From contig NC_088810.1 in assembly GCF_011386835.1 (NCBI RefSeq), positions 9,858,001 through 9,922,000 of the forward strand: a DNA stretch of 64,000 nt, in the 5' to 3' direction. How positions within the stretch are numbered: the first letter of the stretch is position 1; the number at the start of each line of letters is the position of its first letter. Source of the stretch: Chrysemys picta bellii (Eukaryota). The position numbers and the translations under genes were made by a program. Positions 55,505 through 62,186 of the stretch are shown one piece after another. The notes below the pieces were generated by a model. It worked only from the letters and a program-made list of their open reading frames with translations, did no database searches and was not told the DNA's origin.

Positions 55505-55657
55505 TCACTTCCCCGCGATGGTCTCCTGGATCCAGTCTAGGTATTTGCAGATGTTGGTGTAGACCCCAGGCTTGTTGGGCTGGGCGCAGGGGTGATCTCC
55601 CCAGGAAACCAGGCCCTGCGGCTTCCCGTTACAGACCAGGGGCCCGCCGGAGTCACC
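55505..55657 (-). CDS. KLK-C exon 5 (Ser195)
   Basis: [50 protein letters not shown]. Confidence 0.92.
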
Positions 55658-58600
55658 CTGCGGAGATGTCACAGAAAAGTCACAGGTCAGCCACGGTATG
55701 CGGGGCCACAGAGACAGCCAGGCCACACCACGGAGACCCAGCCAGGCCACGCAGAGCCACGGAGATGCAGCCACACCACGCTATGGAGAGGTAGCCATGC
55801 CACGCCATGTAGAGCCACAGAGACGCAGCCACGCCATGGAGAGCCAGGAGATGCAGTCAAAGCGTGCCACGCGGCACTGTGGAAAGGCAGCCACGCCCCA
55901 CGGGGCCACGAAGCAGCAGCTGCCCCACGCAGAGCCACGGAGATGCAACCACACCATGCTATGGAGACAGCCCCACTGTGCCATGCAGAGCCACAGAGAC
56001 ACAGCCACATGGAGCCACGGCACACCATGGAGCCACGGCACACCATGGAGCCACTGCCATGCCAGTGTCCCCAAACCTCGTTCTCCATCTGCCCATGGGA
56101 TGGCCCCAGGAGAAGCCCCCCTCACCTGGCAGGAGTCTTTGCCCCCCTCCAGCACCCCAGCGCAGAGCATGTTCTCAGTCACTTTCTCGGGGTACGCATC
56201 CTGGCAGATGGTATTGGAGAGAATCTCGACGTCCAAGCACTGGGGAACATCAGGGTACGTCTCTGGAAGGGAAGGGGTGACAGTTTCCCACAAGGGCTGG
56301 CCAAGGCCGTGGGGGAGGGAGGGTAGCATGCCCCTCAATCCCGACCCACAGCCCCCTGCTATCCCAGCCCTGCCACCCCCCAGCTCTGCTGGTGCCCCTC
56401 ACTCCCAAGCCGCAGCCCCTGCTAGCCCAGCCCTGGGCTCCCCCCCACCCAGCTCTGCCAGTGCCCCTCCCTCCTGACCCACAGCCCCTGCTATCCCACA
56501 GCAGGACTGGGGTCTGCTACCATCGGGGCTGGTGGTGGTGCCCCATCCCATCACGGTGCAGTGGGTCCCTTCTGGGGGGCAGACGTCAGTCAGTGCCAGG
56601 GGCTGCACGTAGTCAGTGTAGACGGCCGGGGGTGACAGGCGGAGCAGCATGATGTCATTCTCGTAGTCCCGGCTGCCAGCGCTGGGGGCGCGGAATCCGG
56701 GGTGGGGGATGATTTCCTGGGCGGCGGCGAACTGCTCGTTCCCCGAGCTCGTTCCACGGCTGTGCTCCCCTAGGCGCATCTGGATGTGACTAAGGACAGA
56801 GGACAGAGAGTCCTGGGCTGCCGGCCAGGCCCAGCCCAAACACCTCTCAGGCCCCAGAGTCCACCCCAGCCCCCCAGCCTTCCAACCCCCAGGCTCCCCA
56901 GCCCCCCAACACCCAGCCCCTGCAAACCCCAGGCTCCCCAGCCCCCACAACACCCAGCCCCCGCAGCTCCCAGAGTCCTCCCCAGCCCCTGCAACCCCCA
57001 GGTTTCCCAGCCCCCCAACACCCAGGCCCCAGAGTCCTCCCCAGCCCCCACAACACCCAGCTCCCCCAGCCCACCCAGGCCCCACAGCTCCCCCAGGCCC
57101 TAGGGTGACCAGGTGTCCGGTTTTCGACTGGAACCCCCAGTCGAAAAGGGACCCTGGTGGCTCTGGTCAACACCGCGGACTGGGCCGTTAAAAGTCCGGT
57201 CAGCGGTGCTGCGGGGCTAAGGCAGGCTAGTCCCTGCCTGTCCTGGCTCCGCACTGCAGGTCCGGCTCCTAGGCGGAGGGGCCATGGGGCTCCGCACGCT
57301 ACTCTCACCCCAAGCACCGGCTCCGCACTCCCATTGGTTGCAGTTCCCAGCCAATGGGAGCTGGGAGGGCGGTGCCTGCGGGCGAGAGCCGCCTGCCGTG
57401 TCTCCACCTACGAGTTGGACCTGCTGGCAGCTGCTGAGGCCCCCCCAAACCCAGAGCCCCCTCCTGCACTCCAAAACCCTCATCCCCGGCCCCACCCCAG
57501 AGCCTGCACCCCCAGACAGAGCCCTCGCCCCCTCCCACACCCCAACCTCCTGCCCCAGCCCAGTGAAAGTGAGTGAGGGTGCGGGAGAGCGAGCCACCGA
57601 GGGAGGGGGCTTGTAGTGAGCGCAGGGCAGGGCCTCAGGGAAGGGGCGGGGCTAGGATGTTTGGTTTTGTGCGATTAGAAAGTTGGCAACCCAACCAGGT
57701 CCCCCAGCCCCTCCCAGCCCCCCAAAACCCCCATGCCTCAGAGTCCACCCCAGCCCCTGCAACAACGAGGCCCACAGCCCCCCAGGCCCCACAGCCCCCC
57801 CAGGCTCCCTTCAGACCCTGCAGCCCCCGGAACTCTGCAGACCCCGCAGCCAACCCCACAGCTCCCGAGACCCTGAAGCTCCCTCAGGCCTTACAGCTCC
57901 CCAAACCCTGCAGCTTCTCTCCAGCTCAGACTCAGCCCTGCCACTGACCCCAGTGATCCCCCCCCAGCTCCACAACTCCCCCTCCAGCTCTCTCTCAGCC
58001 CTCCCACTGACCCCACTGATCCCCCCTCCCCCTCCCCCTCCCCCCCAGCTCCACAACTCCCCCTCTGACTCAGCCCCCCACTGACCCCACTGATCCCCCC
58101 CTCCCCCCGGCTCCAAAACTCCCCCTCCAGCTCTCGCTCAGCCCTCCCACTGACCCCACTGATCCCCCATCCCCCTCCCCCCCAGCTCCACAACTCCCCC
58201 TCTGACTCAGCCCCCCCACTGACCCCACTGATCCCCCCGGCTCCAAAACTCCCCCACCTACCTCCCTAGCAACCTAACTTCCGACTGACCCACGTACCAA
58301 CCTCCCTCCCTCCCTAACAACCTACCTTCCCACTGACCCACATACCAACCTACTTCCCTACCCAACAACCTCCCTACCCTCTTACCTTCCTACCAAACTT
58401 ACCTTCCGACTGACCCACCTACCAACCTGTCTACCTACCCACCAACCTCCCTACCCACCTATCTCCCTACCCTCTTACCTCCCTACCAAGCTATCTTCCA
58501 ACTGACCCANNNNNNNNNNNNNNNNNNNNNNNNNNNNNNNNNNNNNNNNNNNNNNNNNNNNNNNNNNNNNNNNNNNNNNNNNNNNNNNNNNNNNNNNNNN

Positions 58601-61600: not shown

Positions 61601-62186
61601 CATATGCACACGTACTCACACCTACATACACACACTCACACGCACACAGACATGCATGCACACACGTGCTCACACCTATATATGCACACTCACACGCACA
61701 CAGACATGCGTACACACATGTACTCACACCTACATACACTCACATGCACACAGACATGCGTACACACATGTACTCACACCTACATACCCACACTCACACG
61801 CACACAGACATGTGTATGCACACATGCTCACACCTACATACGCACACTCACACGCACACAGACATGCGTACGCACACGTACTCACACCTACATACCCACA
61901 CTCACACGCACACAGACGTGTACACACACGTACTCACACCTACATACCCACACTCACACGCACACAGACGTGTACACACACGTACTCACACCTATATACA
62001 CACACTCACACGCACACAGACATGCGTACACACACGTGCTCACACCTATATACACACACTCACACACACATAGACATGCGTACACACACGTGCTCACACC
62101 TACATACACACACTCACACGCACACCCAGCCCCTCACCTGCAGGCAGCAGCAGAAGCAGCAGCAGCGCGAAGCCGGCCCGCTCCAT
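55505..62186 (-). CDS. Intact kallikrein (KLK-C) resembling gilatoxin / snake-venom serine proteases, 253 aa, 5 coding exons
   Basis: Exons 62186-62138, 60262-60109, 56789-56521, 56262-56126 and 55657-55505; phases I,II,I,0; 762 nt; Kozak [49 protein letters not shown]...TAAHC...ENDIMLLRL...[19 protein letters not shown]...GKDSCQGDSGGP...[10 protein letters not shown]. Minus-strand AATAAA at 55408-55413. Confidence 0.92.
56126..56262 (-). CDS. KLK-C exon 4
   Basis: ETYPDVPQC...[13 protein letters not shown], 137 nt. Confidence 0.92.
56521..56789 (-). CDS. KLK-C exon 3 (Asp102)
   Basis: HIQMRLGEH...[11 protein letters not shown]...[10 protein letters not shown], 269 nt. Confidence 0.92.
57100..57692. 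mobile_element. hAT-type MITE in KLK-C intron 2
   Basis: tagggtgaccag ... ttggcaaccc termini. Confidence 0.65.
58510..58714. other. Assembly gap (205 N) inside KLK-C intron 2
   Basis: Run of N flanked by tandem repeats. Confidence 0.99.
58790..59880. repeat. ~44 bp minisatellite
   Basis: gatgctgggtgtctatggggctggctgtgtaggggctggcagagg units. Confidence 0.9.
60109..60262 (-). CDS. KLK-C exon 2 (His57)
   Basis: [50 protein letters not shown], 154 nt. Confidence 0.92.
61210..62125. repeat. (CA)-rich degenerate repeat, KLK-C intron 1
   Basis: acacacgtactcacacctacatac units. Confidence 0.9.
62138..62186 (-). CDS. KLK-C exon 1 (signal peptide)
   Basis: GCCATGG, poly-Leu core, G|gtgag. Confidence 0.88.

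Follow-up and report, generated by a model that had tools for sequence, protein, structure and literature searches.

A 'snake-venom-like' (SVL) lineage of tissue kallikreins was defined by Barua, Koludarov and Mikheyev in 2021 (PMC8705180), with Pelodiscus and Alligator among the sampled species. Genes of non-venomous reptiles were placed there with the snake venom serine proteases (SVSPs), and SVL was given as sister to the KLK1 lineage. A preprint describes the SVL cluster as ubiquitous among the reptiles examined (bioRxiv 2021.04.26.441528), and relatives of the gene described below release kinins and cut fibrinogen (PMC5577576). Here we analyze KLK-C, a gene in a 64,000-nucleotide stretch of the Chrysemys picta bellii genome (the window, scaffold C20:9,858,001–9,922,000; coordinates are those of the window unless prefixed by C20). 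We conclude with considerable confidence that KLK-C is an intact turtle SVL tissue kallikrein, predicted to be a secreted zymogen of an Arg/Lys protease, with a likely ordinary physiological role rather than that of a toxin. Turtle membership in the SVL lineage is correct but already known (PMC8705180), and since this central point is published it will not surprise a specialist. The bird orthologues add a little to it, as does the slow turtle branch.

KLK-C is a real, intact minus-strand gene (62186–55505). Its five exons hold a coding sequence of 759 nt that encodes 253 amino acids without an internal stop:

62138..62186, minus strand: exon 1, with the ATG and the hydrophobic leader (residues 1–16); P0002 and P0390, two turtle orthologues, have the same N-terminus
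60109..60262, minus strand: exon 2, with the propeptide to Arg23, the mature start IIGG, HPWL and catalytic His64
56521..56789, minus strand: exon 3, with the 99-loop (five residues more than in trypsin), catalytic Asp113, Cys138 (trypsin-type 128) and MGWG
56126..56262, minus strand: exon 4, with [17 protein letters not shown] and Asp200 (=Asp189)
55505..55657, minus strand: exon 5 and stop, with Ser206, Gly223, Gly234, Cys240 (trypsin-type 232) and the end ETIAGK; coding part 55657–55508, stop TGA 55507–55505
55408..55413, minus strand: AATAAA, read from the sequence as a likely polyadenylation signal, ~90 bases past the stop

All four introns are GT-AG, with phases 1, 2, 1 and 0, and a run of N (58510–58714) falls inside intron 2. 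The splicing given is that predicted by splice signals and orthologues. Chance does not explain the open frame, because public turtle proteins match it at 77–96% and a RefSeq protein differs at 6/253 residues. Tissue kallikrein genes have five coding exons and intron phases 1, 2, 1, 0. KLK-C shows this pattern, with its triad on exons 2, 3 and 5; location of the triad residues on separate exons is described for tissue kallikreins (PMC2967472). A sequence-only reading of the window had proposed an intact KLK gene that keeps the triad and Asp189 and is activated at an Arg, and the 253-residue model bears this out. The six peptides quoted there are all present, at residues 24, 49, 148, 191, 221 and 244.

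Residue numbering in a 54-sequence alignment followed the colinear 253-residue Malaclemys orthologue. His64, Asp113, Ser206 and Asp200 occupy invariant columns of this alignment, while Gly223 (=216), Gly234 (=226) and the activation site between R23 and IIGG were read from the sequence, the mature chain beginning at Ile24. KLK-C thus carries the triad, the Asp189/Gly216/Gly226 pocket and the IIGG/IVGG mature start of S1A trypsin-like proteases, and its orthologue P0002 matches Pfam Trypsin with an E value of 2.4e-71. Each of the 12 cysteines has its aligned counterpart in rat trypsin, the 128/232 pair (chymotrypsin numbering) included, and six trypsin-type disulfides are predicted. No N-glycosylation sequon is present. 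The protein ends in ETIAGK without the snake C-terminal extension, and there is no cysteine in the 91 region. Residues 1–16 form a putative signal peptide. Together with the short propeptide ending in Arg and the Asp189 pocket, this hydrophobic leader points to a secreted zymogen that would cut after basic residues. KLK-C would accordingly leave the cell through its leader, be activated by a trypsin-like cut after Arg23, and then cleave proteins after Arg/Lys with trypsin-like specificity. By analogy with relatives, our best guess is that it works in an exocrine gland and frees kinins from kininogen.

Relatives were sought with the Malaclemys orthologue, scoring 8000 candidates. The closest public proteins are those of emydid turtles, with 8 differences from KLK-C in Trachemys and 10 in Malaclemys; the 'trypsin-like' RefSeq protein of Chrysemys picta bellii itself (P0390) accounts for the 6/253 differences noted above. 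Among the best 120 of 789 matches, turtles came first, then alligator (66%), tuatara (62%) and birds (mostly 53–61%), followed by amphibians, geckos and other lizards; the Heloderma kallikrein toxin stood at 53%, among trypsins at ~50%. Gilatoxin and the SVSPs were found when a python protein served as query (110 matches among 2648 candidates). A set of 150 representatives included one mammalian KLK1 (loris P0297).

Two trees were built. The first (IQ-TREE, 82 rows) left out P0040, P0114 and an exon-lacking paralogue, 9595m. It placed KLK-C inside a 42-row sauropsid clade (support 100/99) of birds, alligator, turtles, tuatara and all squamates, gilatoxin and SVSPs included. The clade tracks species groups, with turtles at 99/96, squamates and snakes each at 100/99 and birds at 100/100. 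Outside it lay the neighboring paralogue KLK-B, eight other turtle KLKs, mammalian KLK4–12 and KLK15-type sequences, amphibian kallikreins and the trypsins. The second tree (63 rows) dropped 26 of these rows and added seven, loris KLK1 among them; the clade returned at 100/99 over 26 rows, with KLK1 outside. In approximately unbiased (AU) tests, forcing the turtle rows together with trypsins (p-AU 9e-05) or with 24 other KLKs (p-AU 8e-04) was rejected. The sequence-only reading had made KLK-C the orthologue and sister of gilatoxin and the SVSPs. Membership in their lineage holds in both trees; sister status does not, as tuatara and non-venomous lizards are closer to the venom enzymes. Measured from the clade ancestor, KLK-C has the shortest of 12 distances at 0.26 changes per site, against 0.97 for gilatoxin and 1.23–1.28 for vipers. 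The resemblance to venom enzymes would then be retained ancestry, the turtle protein having changed little since the sauropsid ancestor and the squamate copies fast.

The rows Pesi_A_07 (Pelodiscus) and Alsi_A_04 (Alligator) of the PMC8705180 supplement match P0010 and P0019, respectively, over the parts shown there; these two are the orthologues used in our analysis. In the text of its Fig. S3, both labels come after the snake and lizard SVL labels, an order that suggests the place of Pesi_A_07. The selection tree of that paper has Alsi_A_04 at the SVL base and Pesi_B_07, not Pesi_A_07, as outgroup. Its species list, in the available text, is without birds and tuatara, and the available text of PMC2967472 mentions a turkey KLK without linking it to the SVL lineage. 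A literature search, with most subscription journals outside its scope, found no statement of a bird or crocodile SVSP orthologue beyond Barua 2021. Many birds carry an intact clade member labeled trypsin, KLK6, KLK11 or KLK15 in annotations; the five aligned bird proteins (P0024, P0026, P0030, P0033 and P0035) have lost the Cys128/Cys232 pair.

We then asked what the shared motifs mark. Leu38, MGWG and the proline before Cys166 occur in 42/42 clade members of the 82-row alignment, bird, alligator, tuatara and gecko sequences among them; the 7 amphibian, 24 other-KLK and 9 trypsin rows with letters there all lack them. HPWL is found in 0/86 snake sequences and PDVP in 55/86. The stretch [10 protein letters not shown] recurs unchanged in a salamander protein and nearly so in trypsins; [13 protein letters not shown] matches Ambystoma in full and two trypsins in all but one letter; the exon-5 stretch, SWGD..PCAQP..PGVYT, returns almost unaltered in KLK5. 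Three features are thus genuine marks of the lineage, common to the whole clade, but what they mark is sauropsid orthology and not venom; the others are general to trypsins and kallikreins. The description of the motifs as gilatoxin/SVSP signatures is not supported. Two narrower points made with it were accurate. HPWL and PDVP are atypical of mammalian KLKs and KLK-B, which (KLK1 included) have QPWQ, SGWG and LQC at these positions, and the gilatoxin N-terminus quoted there agrees with database entry P0216.

KLK-C lies in a tandem KLK cluster, as had been proposed, with KLK-A, KLK-B and one further KLK within 90 kb. KLK-B flanks it on one side; on the other are another KLK and then a guanylate-binding protein (GBP) gene.

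34600..39394, minus strand: KLK-B, paralogue of KLK-C; 248 amino acids, intact, five exons; a control gene outside the venom-related clade
C20:9,938,223–9,969,742: second copy, corresponding to window 52484–64000 onward

The KLK-C/KLK-B order is repeated in fused gene models of two other turtle families, Carettochelys (P0003) and Eretmochelys (P0391). A second KLK cluster at C20:9.45–9.66 Mb agrees with the published 'two to three clusters'. Of the markers that PMC8705180 gives for the KLK/SVL region, Pfam matches were found on C20 for TMEM147 (7.73 Mb), HAUS5 (7.87 Mb), COX6B (9.30 Mb), a CTU1-type domain (9.78 Mb) and GRAM+VASt (12.58 Mb); those for hepsin were on small contigs only. These matches lie 0.14–2.7 Mb from KLK-C and do not separate paralogues, and the synteny is chromosome-scale only. 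In 150 filtered open frames from the 70 kb beyond the second copy, Pfam found no RRM or GRAM domain, although short exons would escape; GBP exons and retroelements were found there.

Several observations concern the surroundings of the gene. GBP exons lie at C20:9.98–9.99 Mb, just past the KLK cluster. KLK-A (7220–11607, plus strand), whose exon 3 contains a frame change with a stop, resembles a pseudogene; the alligator protein P0291, similar to it (orthology judged by eye), is intact. An alligator gene model, P0367, fuses P0291 to CTU1, and in the turtle a CTU1-type match lies 89 kb before KLK-A. A 244-codon open frame (3899–4630, minus strand) adjoining KLK-A matches Pfam DUF4533 (E 4.7e-08). 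Between KLK-B and KLK-C is a decayed retroelement (~49800–54000), with reverse transcriptase and RNase H matches at 53122–53982. The insertion may be old, since related sequence lies between the same genes in the sea-turtle model P0391. At the start of the scaffold, C20:74,000–108,000 holds at least three trypsin-like genes, and the two tested fall with trypsins.

The second copy belongs to a 28-kb unit that comprises KLK-C and its neighboring KLK and occurs again shortly past the end of the window, bounded on both sides by runs of 500 N. The copies diverge by 0.8–1.3% (six segments compared), and the protein of the second has the six residues that separate RefSeq P0390 from KLK-C of the window. 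The contig of one sequencing run has three of the listed second-copy letters and two other runs have those of the window. In one DNA run, KLK-C had a contig depth of 11–15 and single-copy KLK-B one of 13, although such depth is no true copy number. The two copies are probably haplotypes of one locus, duplicated in the assembly. HAUS5, hepsin and CTU1-type matches recur on contigs C28, C97, C149, C1829, C2004, C2554, C3069 and C4534, and because some recurring small-contig matches score identically, haplotigs may have been left unpurged.

A number of results weigh against our assignment of KLK-C as an SVL kallikrein with an ordinary role, or against parts of it. Three runs guessed to be RNA gave no splice joints over exons 3–5; their signal there is an intron-3 repeat and unspliced pieces. 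None of the sequencing runs that contain the gene is recorded as RNA, which counts neither for nor against expression. The best matches among solved structures, and the public names of KLK-C relatives, are trypsins. The published sisterhood of KLK1 and SVL was not recovered in the second tree, which has one long-branch KLK1 row and an unsettled bootstrap. Birds sit at the clade base in both trees, not beside alligator, so hidden paralogy is possible. The GRAMD1-type match 2.7 Mb from KLK-C is unlike the tight arrangement of vipers, which have RBM42 and GRAMD1A on the two sides of their SVSPs (bioRxiv 2024.07.29.605543). Finally, the full 99 'kallikrein' loop of classical KLK1-type kininogenases, needed for that activity (PMC2967472), is absent from KLK-C; the turtle loop is six residues shorter than that of loris KLK1 when the Malaclemys orthologue is compared, and this weakens the kininogenase guess.

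The alternative that survives best, though we think it unlikely, is that KLK-C is a toxin-like oral enzyme, a kininogenase or fibrinogenase of saliva already with venom-type activity. It draws on SVL clade membership, the lineage having been argued to be 'toxipotent' through kininogenase activity (PMC8705180), on a kininogen-2 reported from Pelodiscus that contains a bradykinin-like sequence (PMC4210874) and on the partial insertion in the 99-loop. Yet the gene is not expanded, being single apart from the 1%-diverged probable assembly duplicate, its branch is slow, and it has neither the snake C-terminal extension, nor the Cys-rich loop remodelling of squamates, nor an N-glycosylation sequon. 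An ordinary glandular role is likelier than a toxic one because the 99-loop is shorter than that of KLK1, the gene is unexpanded and its evolution is slow. Less probable still, we would give only a slim chance to an SVL out-paralogue, one of two SVL genes in the sauropsid ancestor that turtles kept and squamates lost. The misplaced birds, the weak backbone inside the clade (89/83, 93/72) and a gene order unlike that of vipers would fit such a history; against it, a genome search with exon 3 found no other close SVL gene, the next matches beyond the two near-identical copies being ≤48% identical, KLK-B and the eight other turtle paralogues fall outside the clade, and turtle and alligator group at 98/82 in the second tree.

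PRSS1-type trypsins have an acidic activation peptide ending in Lys; the propeptide of KLK-C ends in Arg. That KLK-C is a trypsin or an ordinary KLK4–15-type kallikrein with venom-like motifs by convergence or chance is very improbable: the 'trypsin-like' names, the top PDB matches, the 12-Cys pattern and an identity to trypsins (48–57%) that equals or exceeds that to venom enzymes (44–54%) speak for it, but both groupings failed the AU tests, the three clade residues occur in no row outside the clade, and trypsin-like genes of the same genome (C20:74–108 kb) cluster with trypsins.

As an intact SVL kallikrein, KLK-C fixes the outgroup against which the most common family of reptile venom enzymes can be read. 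Leu38, MGWG and PDVP become ancestral features common to all sauropsids, while squamate loop remodelling, loss of Cys128-Cys232 and the snake C-terminal tail are later, a division that helps to test the 'toxipotent gene' idea. With the SVL assignment, genes annotated as 'trypsin-like' in turtles, birds and crocodiles can also be relabeled. More tentatively, and with the odds against it, every sauropsid group including birds may keep one venom-protease orthologue, of which the emydid copy would be the least changed, made in oral glands and already kinin-releasing. If so, no living enzyme would represent the pre-venom state better than the emydid one, and comparing its activity with that of venom forms would date toxicity.

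Among known enzymes, KLK-C is 49.8% identical to gilatoxin, 44–50% to viper enzymes and 51.6% to pig trypsin. Gilatoxin (Heloderma, P0216) shares the IIGG.EC...GHPWL start, MGWG, the triad and Asp189, and both proteins are without the snake tail; its 91–99 loop is longer and bears cysteine, it lacks the Cys128/Cys232 pair kept in the turtle, and its branch is nearly four times that of KLK-C. SVSPs of vipers, elapids and colubrids resemble KLK-C in MGWG (85/86), P.VP.C (79/86), typically 12 cysteines and mostly an S1 Asp. The extra SVSP cysteine pairs 91-245e. Snake venom serine proteases carry a C-terminal extension (PMC11054993), its cysteine being present in 83/86 snake sequences and absent from KLK-C, which is thus not an SVSP in the strict sense. 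Conversely, Cys232 (Cys240 of KLK-C) occurs in 8/8 turtles and in 0/13 aligned snakes and 0/6 toxicoferan lizards, and vipers have multi-gene SVSP arrays whereas the turtle genome has one KLK-C gene. Mammalian KLK1 (loris P0297) is, as KLK-C is predicted to be, a KLK-type zymogen that is secreted, and its identity to the Malaclemys orthologue is 47%, but it has QPWQ, SGWG and PDDLQC, no Cys128/232 pair and the longer 99-loop. Closest are the published SVL kallikreins of the same clade and chromosome neighborhood (PMC8705180), to which KLK-C is 77% (Pelodiscus) and 68% (alligator) identical. Pesi_A_07 of Pelodiscus comes from another turtle family and its N-terminal part is garbled in the published alignment, whereas the KLK-C model is complete.

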